In this document: piece after piece, positions 46,209 to 63,532 of the stretch
Position numbering within the stretch: the stretch's first letter is position 1
Layout: each line of letters starts with the position of its first letter
Assembly: GCA_034430395.1 (NCBI GenBank)
Contig: DAOUEQ010000052.1
Location: forward strand, 17,896-81,895
Direction of reading: 5' to 3'
From: Anaerolineales bacterium
GTDB lineage: Bacteria > Chloroflexota > Anaerolineae > Anaerolineales > E44-bin32
DNA length: 64,000 bases
Made by a program: the position numbers and the translations under genes
Notes under the pieces: model-generated
The model's input: only the letters and a program-made list of their open reading frames with translations
The model's database searches: none
What the model was told of the DNA's origin: nothing

Positions 46209-46520
46209 ATTACTTATTCAGTCAATGGACACGACGATGAACTGCATCTCGTCATTGGCTATAAATACGTTCAATTGATCTTCAATCGTTGAAGCCCTTC
46301 GGTTCCACTGCAACCTTAAAAACCCCGGCACACACGAACAGGTGGCGGAGATGGTTGCGTGATTTCAACAGCCCGGTGCAATGACGGGATGCATAACTGT
46401 CAGCGTGAAAAATAACATGGTGCGAGGTTGTCGAATCGCAGGGCAATACATCAACAACTTGGGGTGCAAAAGAGGGTTGAAAGTAGTACAGTGTTTGTAG
46501 TCAAAGAAAGGTGTTCTTGC

Positions 46521-47657
46521 ATGGATTTGCGTCAACTCTTCCTCCTCGACCCCGCTGTAACGTACTTGAATCACGGATCCTTCGGCGCTTGCCCAAAGCC
46601 TGTATTCCAGGCATATCAGGGATGGCAACTCGAACTCGAGCGCCAGCCGGTGGATTTCCTCAACCGAAAGGCGCCAGGATTAATGGCTGAGGCACGTGGC
46701 GCTCTAGCTGAGTACGTCGGCTGTGGGGCGGATGACCTGGTGTACTTCCCTAACCCCACAACGGCGATCAACATGGTTGCGCGCAGCCTGAAACTTGGAG
46801 CCGGAGACGAAATCCTGACAACGGATCACGAATACGGCGCTGTGAACCGGACCTGGCGCTTTATCTGCAATCAGAGTGGCGCACGCTACATCAGGCGTGC
46901 GGTCCCGCTTCCTCTTTGTGAAGACGAGGCCTTTATTGAACATTTTTGGTCCGGCGTAAACAAACACACCCGCGTAATCTTTATCAGCCACATCACCAGT
47001 CCGACGGCACTTAAATTTCCCGTGAAGGAGATTTGTGCTCGGGCGCGCGAGGCTGGACTCTTAACCATTGTCGACGGCGCTCATGCCCCGGGTCAAATTC
47101 CTCTCAATCTTAAAGAACTCGGCGCCGATGTTTACACCGGCGCCTGTCATAAATGGCTCTGCGCTCCAAAAGGTGCCTCTTTCCTGTACGCGCGCCCGGA
47201 AGTGAGGGATATTCTCGAGCCTCTGGTAGTGAGCTGGGGCTGGGAGGCGGAGCAACCTGGAGCATCACGTTTTATTGATTATCACGAATGGCAGGGCACG
47301 CGCGATATAGCGGCTTTTCTGTCCGTCCCTGCCGCTATCGAATTTCAACGCAAATATCGGTGGGATGATGTGCGCCGCCACTGCATTGAACTTGCTGCAG
47401 AGACGAGGGATCGTCTGCTTGAAATTATTGGGACCGCCAGGTTGACTGGATCACAGGAGTGGACGTTGCAGATGGCTGCGGTTGAACTGCCAGAACCCAA
47501 TCACGATATCCAACACAAACTGCTTGAGGAGCATAATATCGAGATCGCCGTCCAAAAATGGTCTGGTCGCTCCTACATGCGTTTTTCTTTTCAAGGTTAC
47601 AACAACCGTGAGGATGCCAATGCGCTGATTAATGCGGTTCAGACTCTTTACTCTTAA
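46521..47657 (+). CDS. class V aminotransferase-fold PLP enzyme (cysteine desulfurase / isopenicillin-N epimerase-like)
   Basis: YLNHGSFG start motif, DGAHAPG, CHKWL (PLP Lys). Start trimmed to MDLRQLF at 46521. Confidence 0.75.
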   Translation: MDLRQLFLLDPAVTYLNHGSFGACPKPVFQAYQGWQLELERQPVDFLNRKAPGLMAEARGALAEYVGCGADDLVYFPNPTTAINMVARSLKLGAGDEILTTDHEYGAVNRTWRFICNQSGARYIRRAVPLPLCEDEAFIEHFWSGVNKHTRVIFISHITSPTALKFPVKEICARAREAGLLTIVDGAHAPGQIPLNLKELGADVYTGACHKWLCAPKGASFLYARPEVRDILEPLVVSWGWEAEQPGASRFIDYHEWQGTRDIAAFLSVPAAIEFQRKYRWDDVRRHCIELAAETRDRLLEIIGTARLTGSQEWTLQMAAVELPEPNHDIQHKLLEEHNIEIAVQKWSGRSYMRFSFQGYNNREDANALINAVQTLYS

Positions 47658-47793
47658 TCGCGTGCACTGCGGGAGCATTAAATTGAAAGACGGAGGCGTG
47701 GACAATGACCGTCGGAATACTCCTGCGCAAACCAGTCGCCCTTCCATTTGCCCTTCTTGCCATCTCAATGGACAATCCCAAAATCACCATCCT

Positions 47794-48330
47794 ATGAAAA
47801 AGCTCAAGATCGATTGGACAATGGTTGCCCTTTCCGCCGTGGCGCTCGCCCTGGCGGGCGTTGCCTGGTGGAAGGGCGGTCAGGACCTCGCTCTGGAGGG
47901 GCTTCGCCAGGGCTTTCAAACTCTTGTGTCGGTCACGCCGATGCTACTCGCGGCTTTTCTGACAGCTGGCTTAACGAACGTTCTTATCTCCAAGGAGCTG
48001 GTGGAGCGCTGGCTCACGACAAGTGCGGGCTGGAGGGGCATCCTGCTTGGCTGCATCGGGGGTGCACTGATACCCGGGGGGCCCTACGTTTACTACCCGA
48101 TTGCCGGCAGCCTGCTGCAATCCGGCGCGGGCTTGGGCGTGCTCGTGGCTTTCGTCATGGCCAAGAATCTTTGGTCGATCTCACGGCTTCCTTACGAGTT
48201 CGCTCTCTTAGGGCCACACCTGACGCTCGTGCGTTACGGTCTAACGCTGATCTTCCCACCGTTGCTCGGCTACCTCACTGAAACGCTGTTTGGGAACACC
48301 ATCGAGCGCATACGCGAGGCTATCCAGTGA
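47794..48330 (+). CDS. permease half-protein (DUF318/ArsP-like), first half
   Basis: About 5 TMs with the LIPGGPYVYYPIAGSLLQSGAGLG motif. Start trimmed to MKKLKIDW. Confidence 0.5.
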   Translation: MKKLKIDWTMVALSAVALALAGVAWWKGGQDLALEGLRQGFQTLVSVTPMLLAAFLTAGLTNVLISKELVERWLTTSAGWRGILLGCIGGALIPGGPYVYYPIAGSLLQSGAGLGVLVAFVMAKNLWSISRLPYEFALLGPHLTLVRYGLTLIFPPLLGYLTETLFGNTIERIREAIQ

Positions 48331-48812
48331 TCGAGTCCACCATCACCCTAATCTTGATCGCACTTTTCCTTCTACTAATCGCCTGGCGCCGCCATGACGG
48401 CAGCCACGTTAAGGGCGCCCGAGTCGGTTTGCAGACCCTTAGGCGCACCCTACCGCTGCTGGTCATCGCCTTCATCATCGTCGGCTACGTAAATGCCCTC
48501 GAACCCCAATCCCTGGTTCAAAATTGGATAGGACCCGGAACAGGACTGCAAGGCGTACTAATCGGGACAGCCGCCGGCATGCTCCTTCCCGGCGGACCTT
48601 ACGTCGTCTTTCCGCTCATCGCCATCCTTTTCCAATCCGGTGCCGGGCTGGGTCCGACGTTGGCGATGATCACCTCCTGGGCGGCTATCGCCTTGCTTAG
48701 CGTATCCTTCGAACTCCCTTTTTTAGGCTGGCGCTTCACCAGAATCCGACTCGGATTCGGCCTGTTAGTCCCCATCCTGGTTGGATTACTGGGAATATTG
48801 TTTGTTGGGTGA
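48327..48812 (+). CDS. permease half-protein (DUF318/ArsP-like), second half
   Basis: Paralogous motif LLPGGPYVVFPLIAILFQSGAGLG; GTGA overlap with the first half. Confidence 0.5.
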   Translation: MIESTITLILIALFLLLIAWRRHDGSHVKGARVGLQTLRRTLPLLVIAFIIVGYVNALEPQSLVQNWIGPGTGLQGVLIGTAAGMLLPGGPYVVFPLIAILFQSGAGLGPTLAMITSWAAIALLSVSFELPFLGWRFTRIRLGFGLLVPILVGLLGILFVG

Positions 48813-51520: not shown

Positions 51521-53236
51521 ATGAATTCGTTAATTATAATAATTCTAGCTGCACTCGGCATTGGTATAGGGTACGGGGTATACGCCCGTAGAATCGACAA
51601 GGAGATTGTACAGCCCAACGACGCGAAAGCCACTCCGGCAAGGATGTACATGGACGGAGTGGATTTCACGCCAGCCAGCCGTAACGTTCTTTTCGGCTAC
51701 CAATTCAAGTCCGTCGCTGCTTTAGCCCCATTGACAGGTCCCATTGTAGCTGTCCAGTGGGGTTGGCTACCGGCCCTGTTGTGGATTATCCTGGGCGTCT
51801 TTTTCATCGGCTGGGTCCAAGACTATGGTTCCTTGATTATGGGCGTGCGACGTGATGGTGAGACAATGAGCGCTTTAAGCTACAAGCTCATCTCGCCCCG
51901 TGCGCGCACGATCCTTTTAATCTTTATCTACTTCTATCTGCTGCTGATCATGGGCGCGTTTGGAAACGCCGTGGGGAAGGCGCTGATGATCAAACCGGAG
52001 GTACCATTCGGCATGATTGCCCTGGTTCTGATGGGTGTTATCGCCGGACAGATGACCTATAAATGGAAGCAAGATATCATCCTAACCAGCATTGTTACAG
52101 TAGTGCTCACATTCGTGGGAATCTGGGTCGGGACGCTACCGGCTGTTTCGAATTTCTTCACCGGCCTGTATGGAGGGGCGGATTCACCGGTCATCTTCTT
52201 GGGCAACACCCAGGCGGCAGTTGTTGGTACGCTGCTCATGTTGTTGTTCTGCTATCTCGGTTCGGTTCTCCCGATCTGGTCCTTCGCTCAACCGGTTAAC
52301 TATGTTTCCTTCTGGATCGTCACACTGGGTATGGCCGGCGGTTTGGTCGGGCTTCTGATCTGGCACCCGGGCATGGGCGACTTCCCGGCCTTTACCGGCT
52401 TTAACGCCGCAGCCGGCCCGCTGTGGCCCATGCTCTTTGTCACGATTGCCTGTGGGGCCATCTCCGGCTGGCATAGCCTGGTATCCACATCGGGTACTGC
52501 ACGCCAATTGGAGAAAGAGACTGACGCCCTGCCTGTGGGCGGAGGCGCAATGTTCCTGGAAGCCGCCTTCGCCATCATGGCCTTCCTGACAGCAACCGTG
52601 GCTTTCGGCGGTTGGCAGGGATTCCTGGATGCCGGCGGCGCAGGCGCAGCGTTGGCAGTCTTTGCGGGCGGTTTGGCTGCCTTCTTAAGCCGCATCGGAA
52701 TTCCACTGGGCTTTGGCGTGGCCTATGGCTCGGTCTTCCTGACCATCATGGCGATTACCATTATGCAATTGGTGGTGCGCTTCATGCGCGTGGCAAGCTC
52801 CGAGATGGTGGGCGATAAGATCCCGGTGATGAAGAATGTGCATGTAGGCAGCCTGGTTGCTTTGGCCCTGACAGCCCTGTTCGTATGGATCATCCCATGG
52901 CTGACGATCTGGGTTGCCTTCGGCGCTGCTAACCAGCTCATGGCTGGTCTGGCCTTGCTGCTAGTGTCCTTGTGGCTACTATCGGAAGGAAGAAAGTACA
53001 ACTGGGCTCTCTACCCGGCGATCTTCATGATCGTCACCGACATCGCCGCCCTGCTCTATGTCGCCTATGTCAACCTGTTCAAGAAGCTGCCGGCGGCTGA
53101 GACCACGCAGGCGACGGTGGCTGCATCTCTGATCGGGATTATCTGCGTCGTACTGGTGGTAGCCGCGCTTATCCTGGTTTGGGATGGGATCCAAGCGCTC
53201 CAGCAAGCCAGGCAGGCAAAACCAGCCGAAGTCTGA
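51521..53236 (+). CDS. cstA: carbon starvation protein A family transporter
   Basis: FGYQFKSVAALAPLTGPIVAVQWGWLPALLWI..G..FIG.VQDY is characteristic of CstA; 571 aa, polytopic; SD AAGGAG upstream. Confidence 0.9.
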   Translation: MNSLIIIILAALGIGIGYGVYARRIDKEIVQPNDAKATPARMYMDGVDFTPASRNVLFGYQFKSVAALAPLTGPIVAVQWGWLPALLWIILGVFFIGWVQDYGSLIMGVRRDGETMSALSYKLISPRARTILLIFIYFYLLLIMGAFGNAVGKALMIKPEVPFGMIALVLMGVIAGQMTYKWKQDIILTSIVTVVLTFVGIWVGTLPAVSNFFTGLYGGADSPVIFLGNTQAAVVGTLLMLLFCYLGSVLPIWSFAQPVNYVSFWIVTLGMAGGLVGLLIWHPGMGDFPAFTGFNAAAGPLWPMLFVTIACGAISGWHSLVSTSGTARQLEKETDALPVGGGAMFLEAAFAIMAFLTATVAFGGWQGFLDAGGAGAALAVFAGGLAAFLSRIGIPLGFGVAYGSVFLTIMAITIMQLVVRFMRVASSEMVGDKIPVMKNVHVGSLVALALTALFVWIIPWLTIWVAFGAANQLMAGLALLLVSLWLLSEGRKYNWALYPAIFMIVTDIAALLYVAYVNLFKKLPAAETTQATVAASLIGIICVVLVVAALILVWDGIQALQQARQAKPAEV

Positions 53237-53727
53237 TCTTCCAAAAGCGGCGGGTTCCTAGCCGGATGCGGAGCCATCTCGAACATCCATATGCCGATCA
53301 TGGAGGCAAAATCTCGAACGGCATCCCTGGACTAACAAGATAGTCGGTCGAAAGAACTGGGGGTGGGCTGGTGCACAATACGATCCAGACTCACCCCCAG
53401 AGATTGTATGAGGTTTGCCAGCGATGCCAGCATAAATCTATTGGGGCTTCGTGCTTTCACTAAGGCGTTGGGGGCGACTCTACCCGGCGTTCGTAATGCA
53501 GGGTCGCGAAGCGTACGTCGGCTGGGATCGGAAAGCCTTGGATCATATCATTCAGGAGTGTTTATTGGGGCAAGTGGAGCTGAGCAAAACTGCATGAAAG
53601 TTAAGAGCCGGTGACCGGGGTTGGTCTTCCAGGTTCCACACCGACTTCGGAAGTGCAATGTTAGAGGTTATAAAATGCTGCTGATAGGGACGATTGCACA
53701 CATCGAGGAACGATGAGATGATCTCCC

Positions 53728-54015
53728 ATGGCTGAACCGTTCCCGCAGCTTGTCAGAAAAGTCGTAAAGACAATCCGTGAGGTTTTTTACGGGATGACGA
53801 TCTACGACTGGGTCCACGAGCTGCAGAAGGCCCGCAATGAGAGGGATCGTCTTTTCACACTGCTCGTCTATGGGGATCTGCTCGGGATCCCGGTCCTTCC
53901 ACCGTACTATACGTTGCGACTGCTGCCATACCTTATTCCAGGTTATGAAAACTGGCGAAGGAGTATGTTGCGCGAGCGGGATTTCACCGACCTCTTCGAC
54001 CAAGAAATTGGATGA
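53728..54015 (+). CDS. small conserved hypothetical protein, paralog A of the ArsA/Get3-associated pair
   Basis: 95 aa. Shares LF.L...GDLLG.P.LPPYY.LRLLPY..P....W.R.MLRERD.TD with the next ORF. SD is weak. Confidence 0.55.
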   Translation: MAEPFPQLVRKVVKTIREVFYGMTIYDWVHELQKARNERDRLFTLLVYGDLLGIPVLPPYYTLRLLPYLIPGYENWRRSMLRERDFTDLFDQEIG

Positions 54016-54141
54016 ACGGGCTCCTTCCTGCTCCGGACCGTGTTCGTGGATCCAAGGAAACCCCGGGTTTAAAGCGGATATTGTTAAGCACTTATTGTGA
54101 AGGATTAGGTTGAGAGCATAGATTAAACAGGAGGACGGGAG

Positions 54142-54417
54142 ATGTCTGAAGAAGAAAAAAATTGGTTAAAGAAAATTGGGCAGTCTGTTATTCAATTCAT
54201 CTATGGCATGGCAGGCCACGATATGACCCGCTTTGCCTTGAAGACCCGCGGCAGCATGGAGCATCTCTTCATCCTGATAACAATGGGTGATTTATTGGGA
54301 GTCCCAATCCTGCCGCCCTACTATTCACTTCGTTTGCTGCCCTATGTCGTCCCCCAGATTTCAACTTGGAAACGCCGTATGTTGCGCGAGAGAGATCTCA
54401 CCGACGCGTTGGCTTAG
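54142..54417 (+). CDS. small conserved hypothetical protein, paralog B of the ArsA/Get3-associated pair
   Basis: 91 aa, strong SD AGGAGG 7 nt upstream; 31/49 identical to paralog A over the C-terminal region (hand alignment). Confidence 0.65.
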   Translation: MSEEEKNWLKKIGQSVIQFIYGMAGHDMTRFALKTRGSMEHLFILITMGDLLGVPILPPYYSLRLLPYVVPQISTWKRRMLRERDLTDALA

Positions 54418-54430
54418 GAGGGCTAACCGC

Positions 54431-55456
54431 ATGTCATTGGCAAAGATGCTAAAGGAAAATCCTAATCGTCGCTACATCATGTTCGGAGGCAAAGGCGGCC
54501 TTGGAAAGACCACTTTCTCCGCAGCAACAGCCTACCATCTGGCCCAATCCGGCCACCGCGTGCTGGTGTTCTCAGTCGATCCGCAAGCTTCTCTATCGGA
54601 CATTTTCGAACGGGACATTTTCGGCAAGGGAGCGGTTGAGATCATGCCCAATCTCTACGCCCAAGAAATCGATGCGGATCAGCACATCCGGGCATACCAG
54701 CAGGAAATCCGCCAGAAGATCCTGGATATGTATGGCATGGAACAGATCCCGGAGGAGATCGAGAACTACATCCAGGCCGCCGCGGCTGAACCTGCCATGG
54801 AAGAGAGCGCCATTTTCGACCAGGTCGTGGACATCGTCATGGCCGAGGAATATGACTACTACATCTACGACCTTGTGCCGCTGGGGCATGCTCTCTACTA
54901 CCTCAGCATGGCGAGTGTCTATGACGAGTGGATTGACAAGATAACCCGCCTTCGCCAGGAGATGGAGGAATATTCGCAAGTCGCCTCGGTGATCAAACGC
55001 GAGGAGACCAGCGAAGAGGATATGATCTTGACCGAATTGATGGATATAAAACACCGCATCAATACCTCTTCCGGCATCCTAACCGACAAAGAGAAGACGG
55101 CGTTCTATTTCGTCATCATCCCAGAGGAGATGATTCTGCTGGATACGGCCAAGGCGGCTGGCCTATTCGCTAAGTATGATGTTCCGCTCTGCGGTTACAT
55201 TGTCAACCGCGTCATTCCGCCCGAACTGGCCGATCAGAATATACCTGCTTATCTGCGCAATCGTCTCGAGATGCAAGAGACTCACCTGAAACACATTCAC
55301 GAGCAGTTTGGCGATCAGGTCCTGGCACACATCCCTGAGTTCGAACGAGATGTCACCGGGCTGCCTATGATCAAGAAGATGGCTGAGGCGATGTTCGGCT
55401 CTGGTCCAGAAGGATCCACCCAACAGGGTATGCCGAGCGGAGGAATACTGTCATGA
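54431..55456 (+). CDS. ArsA/Get3 (TRC40)-family SIMIBI ATPase, subunit A
   Basis: Deviant Walker A FGGKGGLGKTT, switch I VDPQASLSD, variant switch II YDLVPLGHAL. ATG 54431 after AGGAGG; the track ORF from 54287 is an upstream extension. Confidence 0.85.
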   Translation: MSLAKMLKENPNRRYIMFGGKGGLGKTTFSAATAYHLAQSGHRVLVFSVDPQASLSDIFERDIFGKGAVEIMPNLYAQEIDADQHIRAYQQEIRQKILDMYGMEQIPEEIENYIQAAAAEPAMEESAIFDQVVDIVMAEEYDYYIYDLVPLGHALYYLSMASVYDEWIDKITRLRQEMEEYSQVASVIKREETSEEDMILTELMDIKHRINTSSGILTDKEKTAFYFVIIPEEMILLDTAKAAGLFAKYDVPLCGYIVNRVIPPELADQNIPAYLRNRLEMQETHLKHIHEQFGDQVLAHIPEFERDVTGLPMIKKMAEAMFGSGPEGSTQQGMPSGGILS

Positions 55457-56427
55457 TCACTAAATCTACTTTGGACTTCCTGAATGAGAAATCAAGGCTA
55501 AAGTATGCCTTCTTCGGTGGCAAGGGCGGGGTTGGAAAGACCGTGCTCGCGGGTGCAACTGCTTTGTGGCTTGCGGAGCAAGGTAAGCGCACACTCCTGG
55601 CTTCGACCAACCCGGTTCATAGCCTATCCAGCTTGCTTGATCAGGACGTTTTCGGAGTCCGCACCCCGGTCAATGATGCGCCGAACCTGACCGCCTATGA
55701 GATCGACACACGCGACACGATTGAGCGGTCCAAGCAGGAAATTCGAGAGAAGATCAGCTGGTTTCTCAAGTATGCCGACATCAAAACCAAAGCCGACGAA
55801 TTTGTGGAATCAGCAACTATGAACCCAGCCTTTGAAGAATCTGCTATGTTCGAGAACATGATCGACCTGATGTTCGAGGACGAATATGACGCCTATGTAT
55901 TTGATACAGCCCCGACTGCCAACGCACGGCGCCTACTGGGGATGTCCTCTGTCTATTCGCTCTGGGTCAACAAGATGATGAAAAGCCGAGAGGAAGCCAC
56001 ATCGCTGCGCGAGTTGCTCTCTTATAGTCGCAAAAAGCAGCAAAAAGATCCGCTCATGGACTATCTCTTAAGTTTTCGGCAACGGATGCTGCACGCAAAA
56101 GAATTACTCACCGACCCTGAACTCACCGCCTTCTTCTTCATAACCTTGCCGGAAGCTTTGCCAATCGCGGTCATCACACGCTTCATCCATTGGTTCAAGG
56201 ACTTCGGCATCCCCGTCGGCGGCGTGATCGTCAACATGTTGATTGACAAGGAAAGCGTGAAGGAGGATTCACCGGATTTCGTCAAAAACCGTGTGGCCAT
56301 GCAGGCGGAATATATGGACGAGATCGAGAAAAAATTCAATGGATCTGTCCGGGCGATCGTCCCTCTCTTCGAGACTGAAGTCCGTGGTGTTGAGATGCTG
56401 CAGCGGACCGCCAAATATTTGTTTTAA
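55453..56427 (+). CDS. ArsA/Get3 (TRC40)-family SIMIBI ATPase, subunit B
   Basis: FGGKGGVGKTV, TNPVHSLSS, FDTAPTANARRLLG (GH of DTAPTGH lost); ATGA overlap with subunit A. Confidence 0.85.
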   Translation: MITKSTLDFLNEKSRLKYAFFGGKGGVGKTVLAGATALWLAEQGKRTLLASTNPVHSLSSLLDQDVFGVRTPVNDAPNLTAYEIDTRDTIERSKQEIREKISWFLKYADIKTKADEFVESATMNPAFEESAMFENMIDLMFEDEYDAYVFDTAPTANARRLLGMSSVYSLWVNKMMKSREEATSLRELLSYSRKKQQKDPLMDYLLSFRQRMLHAKELLTDPELTAFFFITLPEALPIAVITRFIHWFKDFGIPVGGVIVNMLIDKESVKEDSPDFVKNRVAMQAEYMDEIEKKFNGSVRAIVPLFETEVRGVEMLQRTAKYLF

Positions 56428-56500
56428 TGATCGTGCTTTATGGTATTAATATAACGCCAGCCGGCTATCCTATGCAAAGCACGGCCGGCGAGGACTTCCT

Positions 56501-57133
56501 ATGAATCTCTATATAATGATTCTCATCTTAGGTTTTTCCTACGCCTTGTTGTTCGGCTTTTTATCGCGCCTCAAGCGTGAGGGGATCTCCCTTCAATTCA
56601 CATTGGAAGCTAGTTTGATCACGCTGCTGGTTGCAGGGGTGGGCTACTTCGGCACTTTGGACGTCAATCCATTCCTCTTTCTTGTGTTCGTTTATTTAGT
56701 CACCATGCGCTCCCGGCTACTTACGGATCTTGCCAACATGTTATCGGGAAGAGGCCGCCAAAGGGACGCCATAGCAATCCTGCAAGTGGCGCTGAGTTTA
56801 TTCCCCGATAAACAAACCCGTCTGATTGTGCTAACCAACATGGGAGTTGTACAACTTCTAAGAAAAAACCCTGCCAGTGCCGAAGACATCCTGAGATCGG
56901 TTTTTGACGAGGCCAAAGATGGCGGCTTGGGAATTCGCTACGAAGCAGCCTGCAACTATAACCTGGGGATCGCCTTGCGCGAGTTAGGTCAGGATGCGAA
57001 ATCCGTACAGTACCTTCGTGAAGCCGCGGAGGGTTTTCCGGGTTCGGCCTATGGCAAAGCTGCTCAGAGAGCCCTAGAAGAACGTCGCCTGGGGAAGAAG
57101 AAGCAGACCGCCCGGTCGGAGTCAGAGGATTAA
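56501..57133 (+). CDS. membrane protein with 3 N-terminal TM helices and a cytoplasmic TPR-like domain
   Basis: TMs at residues about 3-21, 33-50 and 55-70. TPR-like helices follow (AIAILQVALSLFPD, YNLGIALRELGQDAKSVQYLREA). SD GAGGA upstream. Confidence 0.6.
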   Translation: MNLYIMILILGFSYALLFGFLSRLKREGISLQFTLEASLITLLVAGVGYFGTLDVNPFLFLVFVYLVTMRSRLLTDLANMLSGRGRQRDAIAILQVALSLFPDKQTRLIVLTNMGVVQLLRKNPASAEDILRSVFDEAKDGGLGIRYEAACNYNLGIALRELGQDAKSVQYLREAAEGFPGSAYGKAAQRALEERRLGKKKQTARSESED

Positions 57134-57293
57134 GTTACGATTGTCCGGGACGAACACAACTTTTTGTCAGCAGGAAGTATAGGCATTCATAATCCTACCC
57201 ACTATCAAGAAGCTTTCATATGTTCCGATAGACCTGGCTTTATGTCATCCTGTCTAACGAGCGCGGATTACCAAAAACTGTTCAAGAAGACAG

Positions 57294-57328
57294 CCTGCGG
57301 GAGGTTGAATTGACCTCCCGCAGGTTTT
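57294..57328 (+). terminator. rho-independent terminator-like hairpin
   Basis: Perfect 12-bp stem CCTGCGGGAGGT/ACCTCCCGCAGG, 7-nt loop, then TTTT. Lies between convergent genes. Confidence 0.6.
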
Positions 57329-57374
57329 AATTAAGGCCGTGCTATCTGTGTTGCCTGACTGGGAAACACAGAAT

Positions 57375-58619
57375 TTATAGTGACAATCTCACCTCAGTAC
57401 CTGGCTTTAATGCCGCCCAGGAAAACCAGAAATGCTCCCCCGAGATCACTCGCTCGAGCTGGGTGCCCTCCAGTGGTCCAGTGACGGCGTGACCGAGCAG
57501 GTTCCAGCGCGTGCCCGTTTCCTGATCTTCAAAACCGTCCGCCTTTGCAACGAAGGTTAGAGTCTGCCCCTCAACCTCGCGGCTGAAAACACCCGTCGAT
57601 CCGGTATCTGGCCCATTGTTGCCAAAAGCAGAAACCGTGCCTGACTCCCAGAAAATGACGATTGATCTTCCCGCAACCTCGTCGTTCACAACTTTTTCAT
57701 CCGTGAGCCGGCTAAATGGATAAGCGATCGTGACATCCTCGATGTCAATCGCAACCACTCGCTCCATCGGCAGGAGCCGTTCATCCTCACCTTCCACGGG
57801 AAAAAACGGGCTGCTGTTAATGCTGTCGTACCCGGCGTAAGGATTCACACCATAGTCACGAACAGCGCCTGTGTCACGGGCGAGAACCTTGCCGTCTGGA
57901 TGGGAAGCCTTGAAATCAGACCAGGCGATGATCTGTGAGGGGAGAAAATCGAGCATTGTGCCCGTCAGATCACCGACGATGGCCTCTCCTATGAACTGCT
58001 GCCACCAGGAGAATGTCTGGCGATCGTACATGACCAAATCCGAATTGCGCAGGTTTCCGCTCGTCCCAAAGTCCAGCACCTGCCCGTCGTCGAGCGTGCG
58101 CCGGAAGGCGATCATCGTATTGCATAGAGGACAAAAGGTTACGGCCACCGGCTCGCCAGCGACCATGTCGTTGACGATCTCATGCCAGATCAAGATCGCC
58201 TGCGGATAAGCCCGCACGTCGCCGTCGATCTCAAATAACATCACCGACCAATCCTCGCCCAACCACTCACCTGCGTCTTTGACACTTTCGAAAACAGGTT
58301 TGTCGATAGCTGGAATCGCGTCGAGGACAGGATTACCGGTGAAAATTTCGCTCAAGTCGACGCTGTGTTTACAAAAATTCGTCCGCTCAAGCCAGAACGT
58401 CTGCCGGAAGGATATTTCGATGCCCTCAAATGGATAACCGCAGCCCTCGACATCCTTTGAACGCGTGGAGGAAACCGTGGCTTCGGACACATCATCGGCA
58501 GGAATCTCCGGCGTTGGACTCCCAACTGGGTTCTGTACAGTTACTGATGCACATGCGGCGGTGACCATTGACAGAAAACCAATGAAGAGCAAAGGTATCA
58601 ACTTTCCATTATTTAACAT
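57375..58619 (-). CDS. DUF3179 domain protein (probable lipoprotein)
   Basis: DAIPAIDKPVF, VAVTFCPLCNT, FGTSGNLRNSDLVMYDRQT.SWWQQ. ATG 58619 after AAGGGGTGG; lipobox-like MVTAAC. Confidence 0.8.
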   Translation of the reverse strand: MLNNGKLIPLLFIGFLSMVTAACASVTVQNPVGSPTPEIPADDVSEATVSSTRSKDVEGCGYPFEGIEISFRQTFWLERTNFCKHSVDLSEIFTGNPVLDAIPAIDKPVFESVKDAGEWLGEDWSVMLFEIDGDVRAYPQAILIWHEIVNDMVAGEPVAVTFCPLCNTMIAFRRTLDDGQVLDFGTSGNLRNSDLVMYDRQTFSWWQQFIGEAIVGDLTGTMLDFLPSQIIAWSDFKASHPDGKVLARDTGAVRDYGVNPYAGYDSINSSPFFPVEGEDERLLPMERVVAIDIEDVTIAYPFSRLTDEKVVNDEVAGRSIVIFWESGTVSAFGNNGPDTGSTGVFSREVEGQTLTFVAKADGFEDQETGTRWNLLGHAVTGPLEGTQLERVISGEHFWFSWAALKPGTEVRLSL

Positions 58620-60272: not shown

Positions 60273-61871
60273 ATGCAACGTTGGAACGGCTGGGGAGAAA
60301 CGAATCGAAGCTACCATCTACCGCTCGCGGCCCGCACCTACCTTGAAGGACTCCTCGGCGCTGGCGTACACATCCAAGACGCAGATTTTCAGGCATCGCT
60401 CGATGCTGTTCCTCCATCCCGCCTTCCAGATCACCCTCTAATATCCACCGGCAGCGAAGCCCGTCTGCTTCACGCTCGAGGACAGAGCCTGCCCGATTGG
60501 ATTGCCTTGCGATCTGGAGAGATCGCAACTTATCCAGACGGAGTCGCCGTACCTGAGACCGACGATGAGGTTGGGCAACTCATTGGGTTCGCTCAGGAAA
60601 TTGGATGCGCACTGATTCCCTATGGCGGCGGCACCAGCGTCGTCGGGCACATTAACCCCTTGCCTGGAGATCGCCCATCCCTCACCGTTAACATGAGGCG
60701 CATGAACCAGTTGCTAAACTTGGATGAGGAAAGCCGCCTGGCTATGTTCTCTGCTGGTGTAACCGGTCCTGAAATCGAGGCCCAGCTCAAGCCACATGGC
60801 TATACACTGGGACACTTTCCGCAATCCTGGGAGTTATCGACACTCGGGGGCTGGATTGCCACGCGCTCCAGCGGTCAACAGTCTTACCGCTACGGTCGAA
60901 TCGAGGATTTGTTCGCCGGCGGAACCATGATGACTCCTGTGGGCAAAATCCAACTACGTTCACTGCCCGCCAGTGCGGCTGGTCCTGACCTGCGCCAACT
61001 TGTTCTCGGGTCGGAGGGACGCCTGGGCGTGATTACGCAAGCCGAAGTCCGGGTGAGATCTCTCCCTGAGGATGAAATGTTCTTCGGTGCGTTTTTCCGC
61101 GATTGGGAAAGCGGGGTGTCAGCTATGCGCTCCCTCGCCCAGGCAAATGCCCCGATCTCCATGGCTCGACTGAGCGACCCGCTCGAGACGGAGACCACGT
61201 TGGCTCTTGCCGGGCGGGAGAGACTCATCACCTTCGCGGATTACGGCCTTCGTCTCCTTGGGCACGGGGTTGGCCGCTCGCTGTTGATTTATGGCATCAC
61301 TGGCGATCACAACTCAGTTTCCAGCGACCGGCAGGAGGTTAATACCATCTTGCGGCGCTTCAGCGGTCTTCCCGTCGGACCGATGATTGGTCGCCAGTGG
61401 GAGAAATCGCGATTTTTTACCCCTTACCTGCGCAATACACTCTGGGATCTGGGTTATGCCCTTGACACGCTTGAAACCGCTCTCCCCTGGCGGGGGGTTG
61501 GTGCTGCGCGCGCTGACGTGATCCAATCAATTGAACAGGCTTTCCAAGCTGAAGGATCGCGCACACTCGTTTTTTCCCACCTCTCGCATATTTACACCGA
61601 TGGCGCAAGTTTGTACATCACCTACGTCTTCCCTATCAATGTGAACCTTGAACAAACTCTGCATATCTGGCGCATGGCCAAGCATGCCGCATCCGTTAAA
61701 ATCATGGCCAATGGAGGGACCATCAGCCACCAGCACGGCGTCGGCCTAGACCATCTCAACTATATGAAGGACGAGAAGGGGGCGACAGGGCTGAGCCTTC
61801 TCGAAGGGGCAAGAAAGGCTCTTGACCCCCAGGGAATCCTTAACCCGGGGAAGGGTTGGCCATGTTCTTAG
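60273..61871 (+). CDS. FAD-linked oxidase, alkyl-dihydroxyacetonephosphate-synthase-like
   Basis: N-terminus MQRWNGWGE, FAD-binding PCMH region IPYGGGTSVVG, C-terminus HQHGVG.DH. Confidence 0.75.
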   Translation: MQRWNGWGETNRSYHLPLAARTYLEGLLGAGVHIQDADFQASLDAVPPSRLPDHPLISTGSEARLLHARGQSLPDWIALRSGEIATYPDGVAVPETDDEVGQLIGFAQEIGCALIPYGGGTSVVGHINPLPGDRPSLTVNMRRMNQLLNLDEESRLAMFSAGVTGPEIEAQLKPHGYTLGHFPQSWELSTLGGWIATRSSGQQSYRYGRIEDLFAGGTMMTPVGKIQLRSLPASAAGPDLRQLVLGSEGRLGVITQAEVRVRSLPEDEMFFGAFFRDWESGVSAMRSLAQANAPISMARLSDPLETETTLALAGRERLITFADYGLRLLGHGVGRSLLIYGITGDHNSVSSDRQEVNTILRRFSGLPVGPMIGRQWEKSRFFTPYLRNTLWDLGYALDTLETALPWRGVGAARADVIQSIEQAFQAEGSRTLVFSHLSHIYTDGASLYITYVFPINVNLEQTLHIWRMAKHAASVKIMANGGTISHQHGVGLDHLNYMKDEKGATGLSLLEGARKALDPQGILNPGKGWPCS

Positions 61872-61921
61872 GCTCTCTTATCCGCAAGCTCTCCCTCCAG
61901 AGAAAGGAAGACTAAATCCAT

Positions 61922-63532
61922 ATGTGGGATCGAGGATGGCGCGATGATGTTTGGTCTCGCATTGACGGGCCGTGGGATCTCATTGTAATCGGCGGAGGAA
62001 TCACCGGGGCGGGGATCCTGCGCGAGGCAGCCCGCATAGGTTTGCGTACGCTACTTGTCGAAGGCCGTGATTTCGCCTCCGGGACATCAAGCCGCTCATC
62101 CAAACTCGTGCACGGCGGCTTTCGCTACCTGCGCGAAGCCAAGTTTCGCCTGACCTACCATTCCGTGCGTGAGCGGGAAGCGTTACTCAAGCAAGGAAGG
62201 GGGCTGGTCAATCCATTAGGCTTCCTACTTGCCAATTATGCTAATGACCGCATCCCGGGATGGGTCTTCGGGGCTGGATTGATCTTCTATGACATCGTGG
62301 GCCTGCAGTGGGGGCACCGCCATTACGGTCCAGAGGGTCTTCGGTCGCTCTGCCCACAGCTTACATTAGCGGGACTGCAAGGCGGTTATCGCTATTTTGA
62401 CGCACAGACGGACGATGCTCGATTGGTATTACGCATTATACGCGAAGCCGTCGCTGATGGGGCTGTAACCCTTAATTATGCGCGGGTTGAGAATGTGCTG
62501 CGCACGCGGAATGGATCCGTACGCGGAATTTCACTACGGGACATATCACCCAACGGCCACAATCGCATGGCGGAGATCCAGGCCAAGGTAGTTATAAACG
62601 CCACCGGCGCCTGGGCTGACACAGTCCGCTCCATGATCGGCAAGAAACAGCGGCTGCGAAAACTGCGCGGGAGCCATCTGATATTCCCTCAACATGCGCT
62701 TCCTCTCACTCGAGCAGTAAGTTTCCTGCATCCTGCCGACAGCCGTCCCGTTTTTGCCTTACCCTGGGAAGGAGTCACGATTTACGGAACGACGGATATC
62801 GAACACTGCCAGACGCTGAACATGGAACCAATGATGGACATCGAGGAGATTGATTATCTTATGGAAGGTCTCCAGCGAGTTTTCGATGTAGATCTCAGTT
62901 CTGAAGACCTACTTGCTACTTTCGCCGGCGTGCGCGCTGTTGTAGATACGGGGAAAGTTGATCCGTCTCGCGAATCGCGCGAGCACGTTATCTGGGATGA
63001 TCGTGGTTTGGTGACGGTCACGGGAGGAAAATTGACGACTTTCCGGGTCATGGCCATCGATGCTCTGCGCTCCATCCATAGATACTTCTCCGGGGCACCC
63101 CTCCCTGATCGCACGCAGCGCGTATTCAACCAACCTCCGCGTGAATACGCGTTGGGCTGCGATTTTGATCCCGCTATATGCCTGCGGCTGCTCGGCAGAT
63201 ACGGCGATGATGCCCCCGAGATCGTAGCCTGTGCGGAAGAGGGCGAGCTTGAGACTGTCGGCGAATCGCCTTACCTCTGGGCTGAGCTGCGCTGGGCCGC
63301 TCGCGCCGAGGGAATCGTCCACCTCGAAGATTTGATCATGCGGCGTATCCGCCTGGGATTGACCCTGCCCAAGGGCGGCTGGCCGTATATTGATCACGTG
63401 CGCTCCATTGCGCAGTCTGAACTGGGCTGGGACAACAATCGCTGGTCCATTGAACAAGATGCTTACGCAAAACTCTGGAATGATAGCTACAGGCCACCGT
63501 CCTCCCCTCGCATAGCTCTAGCGGCGCAATAG
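61922..63532 (+). CDS. glpD: FAD-dependent glycerol-3-phosphate dehydrogenase
   Basis: DLIVIGGGITGAGI, GTSSRSSKLVHGGFRYL, GGKLTTFR. Confidence 0.85.
   Translation: MWDRGWRDDVWSRIDGPWDLIVIGGGITGAGILREAARIGLRTLLVEGRDFASGTSSRSSKLVHGGFRYLREAKFRLTYHSVREREALLKQGRGLVNPLGFLLANYANDRIPGWVFGAGLIFYDIVGLQWGHRHYGPEGLRSLCPQLTLAGLQGGYRYFDAQTDDARLVLRIIREAVADGAVTLNYARVENVLRTRNGSVRGISLRDISPNGHNRMAEIQAKVVINATGAWADTVRSMIGKKQRLRKLRGSHLIFPQHALPLTRAVSFLHPADSRPVFALPWEGVTIYGTTDIEHCQTLNMEPMMDIEEIDYLMEGLQRVFDVDLSSEDLLATFAGVRAVVDTGKVDPSRESREHVIWDDRGLVTVTGGKLTTFRVMAIDALRSIHRYFSGAPLPDRTQRVFNQPPREYALGCDFDPAICLRLLGRYGDDAPEIVACAEEGELETVGESPYLWAELRWAARAEGIVHLEDLIMRRIRLGLTLPKGGWPYIDHVRSIAQSELGWDNNRWSIEQDAYAKLWNDSYRPPSSPRIALAAQ

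Follow-up and report, generated by a model that had tools for sequence, protein, structure and literature searches.

A tandem pair of DUF7990 (CstX-like) genes encoded with CstA and two Get3/ArsA-like ATPases in an Anaerolineales bacterium

Two small open reading frames lie in tandem in the genome of an Anaerolineales bacterium (Chloroflexota), and their products share a hydrophobic core rich in proline and tyrosine. What kind of proteins do they encode, and what might such proteins do next to a transporter gene and two ATPase genes? We analysed the window, a stretch of 64,000 nt from contig DAOUEQ010000052.1 (assembly GCA_034430395.1), in which the two frames occupy positions 53728..54015 (S1, 95 amino acids) and 54142..54417 (S2, 91 amino acids) on the plus strand. 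S1 is the faster-evolving and S2 the hyper-conserved member of a pair of DUF7990 (CstX-like) paralogues.

Paralogy, selection and family identity of S1 and S2

The initial annotation of this region had described the two frames as tandem small paralogues. Both frames are present at the coordinates given above, and BLASTP aligned their products with 40 identities in 88 positions (45% over 88 amino acids, E = 3e-30); the observed score of 89.7 bits is far above the best score obtained with 500 shuffles of S2 (20.8 bits). The hand count of 31 identical residues among 49, reported earlier for the C-terminal region, was reproduced exactly for residues 40-88, and the synonymously recoded codon strings quoted from the core are present in the sequence as written. 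As had also been noticed, the N-termini are more diverged than the core: 9 of the first 39 residues are shared, and pN (Nei-Gojobori counts) is 0.49 in the N-terminal part and 0.25 in the core. A profile scan of all six frames recovered S1 and S2 as the sole copies of the family in the window. A 111-amino-acid frame on the minus strand (53668-54003) is a shadow of S1.

Synonymous differences between S1 and S2 are saturated (core pS 0.75, N-terminal pS 0.79; Nei-Gojobori counts). Calculated against the less diverged orthologues, dN/dS was 0.11-0.15 for S1 and 0.02-0.05 for S2, in the same range as the values for the neighbouring ATPases and CstA (0.04-0.08). The saturated pS between the paralogues and the low dN/dS among orthologues agree with the earlier proposal of an old duplication kept by selection, not a recent repeat, with the core under purifying selection. 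Orthologues are 55-92% identical for S1 and 77-97% identical for S2; mean p-distances are 0.39 for the S1 type and 0.16 for the S2 type, and variation in the latter is mainly N-terminal. Across 78 loci, there is almost no variation in the C-terminal 72 residues of the S2 type. In L092, where the partner S protein is very divergent, this stretch differs by one Lys/Arg change. Judged by these comparisons, S1 and S2 are real genes that arose by an old duplication and were retained by selection, and the S1 type evolves several times faster than the S2 type.

That the frames are untranslated, as chance open reading frames or a repeat, has practically no standing: beyond their small size nothing speaks for it, and as far as sequence analysis goes it is refuted by comparative data, namely more than 1000 homologues for S1 (1069 in a large protein search) and several thousand for S2 (6391), dN/dS of 0.02-0.15, conserved gene order and spacing at the loci, a strong ribosome-binding site (AGGAGG) upstream of S2, and a distance of 13 nt from the S2 stop to the start of the first ATPase gene.

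Based on the precomputed Pfam annotation of database entries, all listed homologues of S1 and S2 carry PF25952 (for S2, the best 120 of 6391), which is DUF7990 according to the contig annotation. The database entry of S1 itself (P0001) carries PF25952.1, and so does P0121, a representative 97% identical to S2. A profile search seeded with the core had been suggested earlier; run exhaustively, the DUF7990 profile collected 459 clusters (50% identity) at E <= 0.001. The family is therefore of moderate size, and its named members come from Chloroflexota, Bathyarchaeota, Deltaproteobacteria, Spirochaetota and Firmicutes MAGs. By these matches, S1 and S2 belong to a family already catalogued as DUF7990, a point that the initial annotation had missed. 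No paper on DUF7990, PF25952 or cory-CC-star was found in the literature collection searched.

The cory-CC-star model NF041419 matches S1 with 44.9 bits (E = 8.7e-12, model positions 12-71) and S2 with 33.9 bits, against a curated cut-off of 80 bits for what is an equivalog of a narrower group. All 58 of 58 diverse DUF7990 members match this model, all below the cut-off. A C-terminal Cys-Cys, a criterion that we took from the name of the group, was found in none of 150 representatives; S1 ends in ...DQEIG and S2 in ...TDALA. Because the scores are below the cut-off and the terminal Cys-Cys is absent, S1 and S2 are regarded as relatives of the cory-CC-star group, not as members.

The gene cluster and its counterparts in other genomes

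The gene cluster includes CstA, which the initial annotation had missed. The plus-strand gene cstA (51521..53236) encodes a homologue, 571 amino acids long, of the carbon-starvation / pyruvate-peptide transporter (Pfam PF02554, E = 1.2e-112). Downstream of S1 and S2, on the same strand, follow two single-domain members of the Get3/ArsA family, ATPase-1 (54431..55456, 341 amino acids; PF02374, E = 9.5e-71) and ATPase-2 (55453..56427, 324 amino acids; PF02374, E = 4.6e-69); the start of the latter overlaps the stop of the former by 4 nt. Next on the plus strand is a gene for a membrane-anchored TPR protein of 210 amino acids (56501..57133; TPR_12, E = 1.2e-9, and other TPR models), whose N-terminal third is hydrophobic and is followed by the TPR repeats. 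In most sufficiently long Chloroflexota loci, a homologue of this gene is found just 3' of ATPase-2, or 5' of cstA on the opposite strand.

Between cstA and S1 there is a 490-nt spacer. It holds the C-terminal remnant (53436..53597, plus strand) of an accessory gene for a protein of about 125 amino acids with the motif HCxHCE ... RYPTFIV. This gene is intact in most related loci, and conservation of the stretch at the protein level was seen in 45 of 66 cstA-S1 spacers; a DNA alignment with loci L002 and L003 revealed a deletion of about 220 bp and a frameshift in the window. The accessory gene is decaying in this genome. Its intact orthologues matched no Pfam family. An RNA element had been considered for the spacer, which gave no Rfam match at E <= 1 and contains the gene remnant instead. 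Scans for promoters and terminators over 53200-57400 gave background level only.

We compared the neighbourhoods of 80 loci from Chloroflexota genomes and 80 loci from metagenomes, the latter representing a third DUF7990 subtype with the C-terminus ...HHLHGL; the counts below refer to loci with enough flanking sequence. In Chloroflexota, the order cstA, S1, S2, ATPase-1, ATPase-2 is nearly invariant. Two small genes are present in 63 of 63 loci, a downstream ArsA-like gene in 67 of 67 (both ATPase types in 66 of 67), and CstA is encoded within 4.5 kb upstream in 52 of 55. The corresponding numbers for the metagenome loci are 27 of 28 for the ArsA-like gene and 20 of 25 for CstA, with two small genes in 17 loci, three in 8 and one in 1. 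These loci also carry, in divergent orientation between cstA and the small genes, a gene for a CstY-like protein of about 218 amino acids with one predicted transmembrane segment (TMS).

The layout of two small genes followed by two ATPase genes (S-S-A-A) recurs in a deltaproteobacterial MAG (L089), a Bathyarchaeota-type contig (L085) and L092, and an S-A-A-S layout is found on the archaeal-type contigs L093 and L094. Because the two-plus-two layout is shared with other bacterial and with archaeal-type loci, the duplication that gave rise to S1 and S2 predates Chloroflexota, a third point that the initial annotation had missed. In L085, L135 and L155, S-S-A-A occurs without CstA within 5-10 kb, and L091 and L094 contain solo DUF7990 genes; CstA is therefore not obligatory for the module.

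Gene fusions were found as well. P0241 joins two DUF7990 units in one protein; P0262 and P0273 join the accessory domain of about 125 amino acids to an S1 type; and P0313, a database fragment, joins the C-terminal end of CstA to DUF7990. In a mirror-tree comparison, a weak test with 28 related loci and no phylogenetic correction, the distance matrix of S1 correlated with those of ATPase-1 (r = 0.72), ATPase-2 (0.67) and the TPR protein (0.71), compared with 0.30 for CstA; in the same 28 loci, r was 0.81 between the two ATPases and 0.75-0.79 between the TPR protein and the ATPases. Several lines of evidence, namely one small gene per ATPase gene, the S-S-A-A loci that lack CstA and these distance correlations, suggest that S1 and S2 are associated more closely with the ATPase pair than with CstA. 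The adjacency of cstA and the CstA-DUF7990 fusion P0313 argue that CstA is the usual membrane partner of the module.

The ATPase pair and the predicted fold of S1 and S2

Both ATPases score above the cut-offs of Get3/ArsA family models and carry the deviant Walker A motif (GKGGxGKT) and the family's switches, which we tabulated. Scores with PF02374 were 239 bits for ATPase-1 and 233 bits for ATPase-2, and those with TIGR00345 (cut-off 135) were 235.9 and 225.4 bits, respectively. The solved structures closest to ATPase-1 are archaeal Get3 homologues (3UG6 and 3ZQ6).

The two proteins differ at the switches. ATPase-1 has SVDPQASL as switch I and YDLVPLGHALYYL as switch II, with the catalytic residues kept, and 69-70 of 70 orthologues share these motifs. 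ATPase-2 has STNPVHSL and FDTAPTANARRLL, which are shared by 64-65 of 65 orthologues and by the distant loci. Aligned with 3UG6, the Get3 homologue of M. jannaschii, ATPase-2 shows Asn in place of both the Asp of STDPAHSL and the His of DTAPTGH. The split into one Asp/His and one Asn/Asn protein was seen in every distant locus examined, archaeal-type loci included. The Asp-to-Asn change at this switch-I position is the classical hydrolysis-deficient mutation of yeast Get3. Because the switch-I Asn is the change that blocks hydrolysis in Get3, ATPase-2 is probably non-catalytic, and the pair probably consists of one catalytic and one non-catalytic subunit.

Eukaryote-type Get3 has a zinc-binding CXXC motif at its dimer interface. 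Neither this motif nor the metalloid-binding cysteines of ArsA are present in the pair; ATPase-1 has one Cys and ATPase-2 none. We thus rejected assignment to Get3 proper of the eukaryote type for want of CXXC. Assignment as an ArsA arsenite pump was likewise rejected: the proteins are single-domain, the cysteines are absent, and the TIGR04291 scores are 100 and 111 bits against a cut-off of 650.

For S2, AlphaFold2 with an 87-sequence alignment spanning the family gave a model with pLDDT 80.2, consisting of a helix (residues 3-52), a turn (53-58, GVPILP), a second helix (59-81) and a short C-terminal helix; a run with a shallow 22-sequence alignment was poor (pLDDT 60) and was left unused. 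With moderate confidence, S1 and S2 are each predicted to form a helical hairpin, in which a long amphipathic helix would lead through a GxP(I/V)LPP turn into a second, proline-kinked helix. The predicted tip is the invariant core, LFxLxxxGDLLG + P(I/V)LPP + YYxLRLLPY, and is hydrophobic, with both ends of the hairpin charged. In the S2 model, this leaves the amphipathic N-terminal half of helix 1 free, and likewise the charged tail (WKRRMLRERD). Hydrophobic moments of 0.69-0.74 (S1) and 0.44-0.53 (S2) bear out the earlier view that the N-terminal regions are amphipathic. No PDB relative of S1 or S2 was found by sequence profile at E <= 10, and Foldseek of the S2 model returned one meaningless PDB match (E = 4.5).

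The hydrophobic stretch had been judged not to be a classical transmembrane helix, and the hydrophobicity scales are in accord with this. Over 19 residues, the Kyte-Doolittle maxima are 1.37 for S1 and 1.59 for S2, just below the usual threshold of 1.6, and insertion energies summed on the Hessa scale come to +7 to +9 kcal/mol, compared with -0.9 for the first CstA helix. By these values, the core appears too polar to form a transmembrane helix on its own; the data are better matched by a tip that enters one leaflet, or lies in the hydrophobic groove of a partner, than by a helix that spans the membrane. Two ideas raised earlier remain compatible with the data: a re-entrant element would fit a predicted hairpin tipped by the PPYY core, and a Get3 groove-binding segment would fit the near-obligate pairing with two Get3-like ATPases. 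A tail-anchored protein, the classical client of Get3, is expected to have a single helix of transmembrane grade within about 30 residues of the C-terminus. In S1 and S2, the hydrophobic segment spans residues ~42-70 of 91-95, has Asp, Pro-Pro and Arg within it, and precedes a conserved charged tail. We rejected this assignment, the segment being central, not of transmembrane grade and about 25 residues ahead of the charged tail.

Candidate roles and comparison with known systems

Slightly better than even odds, roughly 0.55, may be given to the reading that S1 and S2 are hairpin subunits that dock or couple an asymmetric ATPase heterodimer at the membrane next to CstA. It starts from what the comparisons demonstrate, namely family membership, selection, conserved co-encoding and the asymmetry of the ATPase motifs; the physical contacts and the effect on transport that it adds would be as follows. 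The hairpins would be stoichiometric subunits of an ATPase-1/ATPase-2 heterodimer, their hydrophobic tips either dipping into the cytoplasmic leaflet or occupying the hydrophobic groove of the ATPase. In this way they would dock the ATPase at the membrane beside CstA, and ATP binding and hydrolysis might gate, energise or assemble CstA-mediated uptake. The slow S2 type may provide the core contact and the fast S1 type a lineage-specific one. The models for such docking and coupling are ArsA, which acts on ArsB, and Get3, which docks on Get1/Get2. The published proposal that CstX links CstA to ArsA (PMC2963123) is independent of the present analysis and counts in favour of the hairpin-subunit reading, as do the gene fusions, the predicted hairpin with its borderline hydrophobicity and the correlation of S1 distances with those of the ATPases. 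The S-S-A-A loci without CstA (L085, L135, L155) and the solo DUF7990 genes (L091, L094) count against it.

A bolder form of this reading, in which the hairpins dock or fill the groove of an ancient Get3-like heterodimer with one catalytic and one non-catalytic subunit, and this heterodimer converts or gates CstA with ATP, is considerably less probable. If true, it would represent an ArsAB-like prokaryotic way to energise a transporter, and many bacterial and archaeal 'Get3 homologues' would be parts of nutrient-uptake machines, not general factors for tail-anchor targeting.

Alternatively, S1 and S2 could be the cargo of the Get3-like heterodimer, their hairpins shielded in its groove until delivery to the membrane, where they would become small subunits of CstA or of the accessory membrane proteins. 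The similarity of the ATPases to archaeal Get3 homologues, the core, which is hydrophobic yet not self-inserting and might need a chaperone, and the fusion fragment P0313 are all consistent with cargo. We nevertheless consider it unlikely. The proteins are not tail-anchored, because the hydrophobic segment is central and not C-terminal, about 25 residues ahead of a conserved charged tail; for a targeting factor, it would be unusual to find each ATPase gene matched by a dedicated client gene in phylum after phylum; and S2 is conserved almost from end to end, beyond its hydrophobic part, which suggests numerous fixed contacts with other proteins.

Could S1 and S2 instead be subunits of the CstA permease, with the ATPases acting elsewhere? 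In that case they would be the counterparts of YbdD/YjiX, small proteins that in enterobacteria are encoded directly after a CstA-family gene (cstA/btsT), as is ybdD after cstA in E. coli. The presence of cstA upstream in 52/55 and 20/25 loci agrees with such a role, as does the statement that CstX is never found without CstA (Castillo & Saier, PMC2963123). Homology to YbdD/YjiX could not be demonstrated, the hhalign probability between a 58-sequence DUF7990 profile and a 29-sequence YbdD profile being 0.5%, and PF04328 (DUF466) had no match at E <= 10 in any of the 58 DUF7990 members. YbdD matches the KCU-star model, not cory-CC-star, and unlike S1 and S2 has neither a hydrophobic core nor ATPase partners; the likeness of YGMxxYD to IGMPDYD and of FRERQD to LRERD is superficial. 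Apparently, the relation is one of analogous position, and homology is not supported. In addition, some S-S-A-A loci have no CstA nearby, S genes match the ATPase pair in number, and S1 co-varies with the ATPases, not with CstA, in the 28 related loci compared without phylogenetic correction. A role confined to CstA thus seems quite improbable.

We rate lower still a purely cytosolic role, in which S1 and S2 would regulate the ATPase cycle, for example as nucleotide-exchange factors, activators or ArsD-like substrate carriers, and do nothing at the membrane. Such proteins could well have conserved charged termini (WKRRMLRERD), an amphipathic N-terminal helix and no transmembrane-grade segment, as S1 and S2 do. 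The conserved 30-residue tip rich in Leu, Pro and Tyr, however, is hydrophobic and would need burial, and the module always has a membrane link, be it CstA, a CstY-like single-pass protein or the TPR protein with its membrane anchor.

The hairpin-subunit reading can be set beside several known systems. In the Get3 system, the ATPase docks on elements of Get1/Get2 that are helical hairpins or coiled coils. The likeness to this system and to ArsA-ArsB lies in the combination of an ArsA/Get3-fold ATPase dimer with a membrane partner, the dimer here being a putative heterodimer of two single-domain chains. Get1/Get2 differ in that they have no sequence or fold match to S1 and S2, nor does any PDB chain. 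ArsA turns the carrier ArsB into an ATP-driven pump (summarised in PMC2963123); in the present case the proposed membrane partner is CstA, which is unrelated to ArsB. BagA/BagB (Rv3679/Rv3680) of M. tuberculosis are likewise two adjacent, interacting Get3/ArsA-like ATPases, the loss of which affects tolerance to stress linked to glycerol metabolism (PMC10597346). The ATPases of the window differ from these, scoring 31-53 bits against model cut-offs of 400-521.

The closest counterpart was described from SEED subsystems: cstA operons of bacteria and archaea with auxiliary cstX and arsA genes (Castillo & Saier 2010, PMC2963123). In that study, CstX is a protein of about 90 amino acids with one predicted TMS, sometimes present as two paralogues; the arsA homologues in the operons are single-domain, of about 330 amino acids, and often adjacent pairs; and some archaea have cstY, encoding about 210 amino acids with one TMS. 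Thermococcus kodakarensis and Symbiobacterium thermophilum are listed there among the organisms with the operon. The conserved Asp after the P-loop was reported to be replaceable only by Asn. The tree of CstX was congruent with those of ArsA and CstA, and from operon structure and this congruence CstX was proposed as a linker between CstA and the ATPase, so that ATP hydrolysis would energise transport (PMC2963123). S1 and S2 resemble CstX in size (95 and 91 amino acids here) and in their position between cstA and single-domain ArsA genes (324-341 amino acids). Each has one hydrophobic segment, and the borderline Kyte-Doolittle maxima given above, 1.37 and 1.59 against 1.6, explain the earlier call of one TMS; the insertion energies of +7 to +9 kcal/mol argue against a helix that spans the membrane on its own. 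The protein of about 218 amino acids with one TMS in non-Chloroflexota loci is similar to cstY. By description, that is, size, position, predicted TMS and occasional duplication, DUF7990 fits CstX; the comparison is by description because the sequences listed in the paper and its supplement are those of ArsA homologues only, with neither sequences nor accessions for CstX. No paper on bacterial CstX later than 2010 was found in the literature collection searched.

S1 and S2 are therefore members of a catalogued family, and the system to which they belong was already proposed in 2010 and is not new in kind. The earlier description does not mention a hairpin, a fixed two-plus-two arrangement, a division into slow and fast paralogues, or the pairing of an Asp-type with an Asn-type ATPase. 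To it we add, as refinements, a predicted hairpin tipped by hydrophobic residues, the constant recurrence of the two-plus-two layout across domains, the unequal rates of the two paralogues, the Asp-type plus Asn-type ATPase pairing, the optional accessory genes and an accessory gene that is decaying in this genome. The module bears on the role of prokaryotic Get3/ArsA homologues outside arsenic resistance, and CstA-family transporters matter for the uptake of pyruvate and peptides. Together, the refinements sharpen the bioinformatic proposal of 2010 (PMC2963123) and provide a better-defined target, a concrete system of four to six proteins for reconstitution.

Small DUF7990 proteins and the ATPase pair

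Comparison of the ATPase pairs encoded downstream of the small DUF7990 genes revealed a consistent asymmetry at the catalytic residues. In ATPase-2 (55453-56427), the switch-I catalytic Asp is replaced with Asn, and the switch-II His is also replaced with Asn, whereas the first ATPase of each pair (ATPase-1 in the window, 54431-55456) retains both the switch-I Asp and the switch-II His. The same split, Asp/His versus Asn/Asn, was found in every pair examined, including those of the window and of the related loci L082, L085, L089 and L092-L094. Based on these residues, the two ATPases may form a heterodimer in which one subunit is catalytic and the other is not, an arrangement that would be conserved in bacterial and archaeal-type loci.

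S2, the second small DUF7990 protein (54142-54417), is nearly invariant over its C-terminal 72 residues in the Chloroflexota sampled. Its counterpart in locus L092 (4054-4410) differs from it in this part by a single Lys/Arg change, and the other small paralogue of that locus is highly divergent. Such strong conservation is unusual in an uncharacterised protein of 91 aa. On the minus strand, an ORF of 111 aa (53668-54003) overlaps S1, the first small paralogue (53728-54015), almost entirely; it was rejected as a gene and regarded as a shadow ORF, because the pattern of conservation follows the plus-strand frame.

Three database homologues appear to join units that are separate in the window. 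P0241 is an apparent fusion with two DUF7990 units within one chain, and P0313 apparently joins the C-terminal end of CstA to DUF7990; no contig of origin was found for the latter. In P0334, the N-terminus of S2 is joined to ATPase-1, which looks like an artefact of assembly or of a frameshift.

An accessory gene in the cstA-S1 spacer

The long spacer between cstA and S1 (53237-53727) is an occupied region. In 45 of the 66 related loci, it encodes a conserved protein of ~125 aa with the motifs HCxHCE and RRYPTF(I/V)V and without a Pfam match. The window copy has suffered a deletion of ~220 bp and a frameshift, and just the final ~50 codons remain (53436-53597, plus strand). In L002, the closest relative, the gene carries an in-frame stop; in L001 and L003 it is apparently intact. 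In the proteins P0262, P0273 and P0246, the ~125-aa accessory domain is fused to an S1-type protein.

Wider neighbourhood

Genes of 2-hydroxyacid and pyruvate-related metabolism repeatedly adjoin DUF7990 genes. Immediately upstream in the Bathyarchaeota-type loci L085 and L086 are genes for an FAD-linked oxidase and a CCG iron-sulfur protein; in L091 and L094, Ldh_2-family dehydrogenases adjoin solo DUF7990 copies; and in the window, an FAD-linked oxidase gene and a glycerol-3-phosphate-dehydrogenase-like gene follow at a distance of a few kb downstream (60273-63532). This recurrence would fit the role of CstA in pyruvate uptake.

Elsewhere in the window, two adjacent overlapping ORFs (47632-48330 and 48327-48812) each correspond to a portion of ArsP_1, a 'predicted permease' family, and represent either a split permease or a two-part permease. 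They adjoin a class-V aminotransferase/cysteine-desulfurase-like gene (46428-47657).

Accessory proteins and known systems

The operon closes with the gene for the TPR protein (56501-57133), which is hydrophobic in its N-terminal third; this third is probably membrane-spanning. In Chloroflexota, proteins of the S1 type have a conserved acidic C-terminal tail, either ...DQEIG or ...DQEIT; the tail is ...HHLHGL in lineages with a CstY-like protein replacing the TPR protein. That these tails serve as ligands for the TPR or CstY-like proteins is pure speculation.

Modules outside Chloroflexota contain two further conserved accessory genes, whose products lack a Pfam match: a ~170-aa protein (L093 3893-4393; L094 2846-3385) and a protein of ~218 aa that has a single hydrophobic segment in its N-terminal part (L082 4466-5122, minus strand; L093 4381-5046; L094 4413-5063, minus strand). 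As indicated by BLASTP, these proteins are mutually related; they are unrelated to the window TPR protein.

In Mycobacterium tuberculosis, the small uncharacterised Rv3678A neighbours the BagA/BagB ATPase pair and has been seen in proteomes (PMC10353445). In M. smegmatis (MSMEG_6193-6195), one number is skipped between the locus tags of bagA and bagB. Rv3678A is a candidate relative of the cory-CC-star or DUF7990 proteins. Among published components, the ~218-aa protein fits CstY, the ~210-aa one-TMS protein of cstA-cstX-arsA operons (Castillo & Saier 2010).
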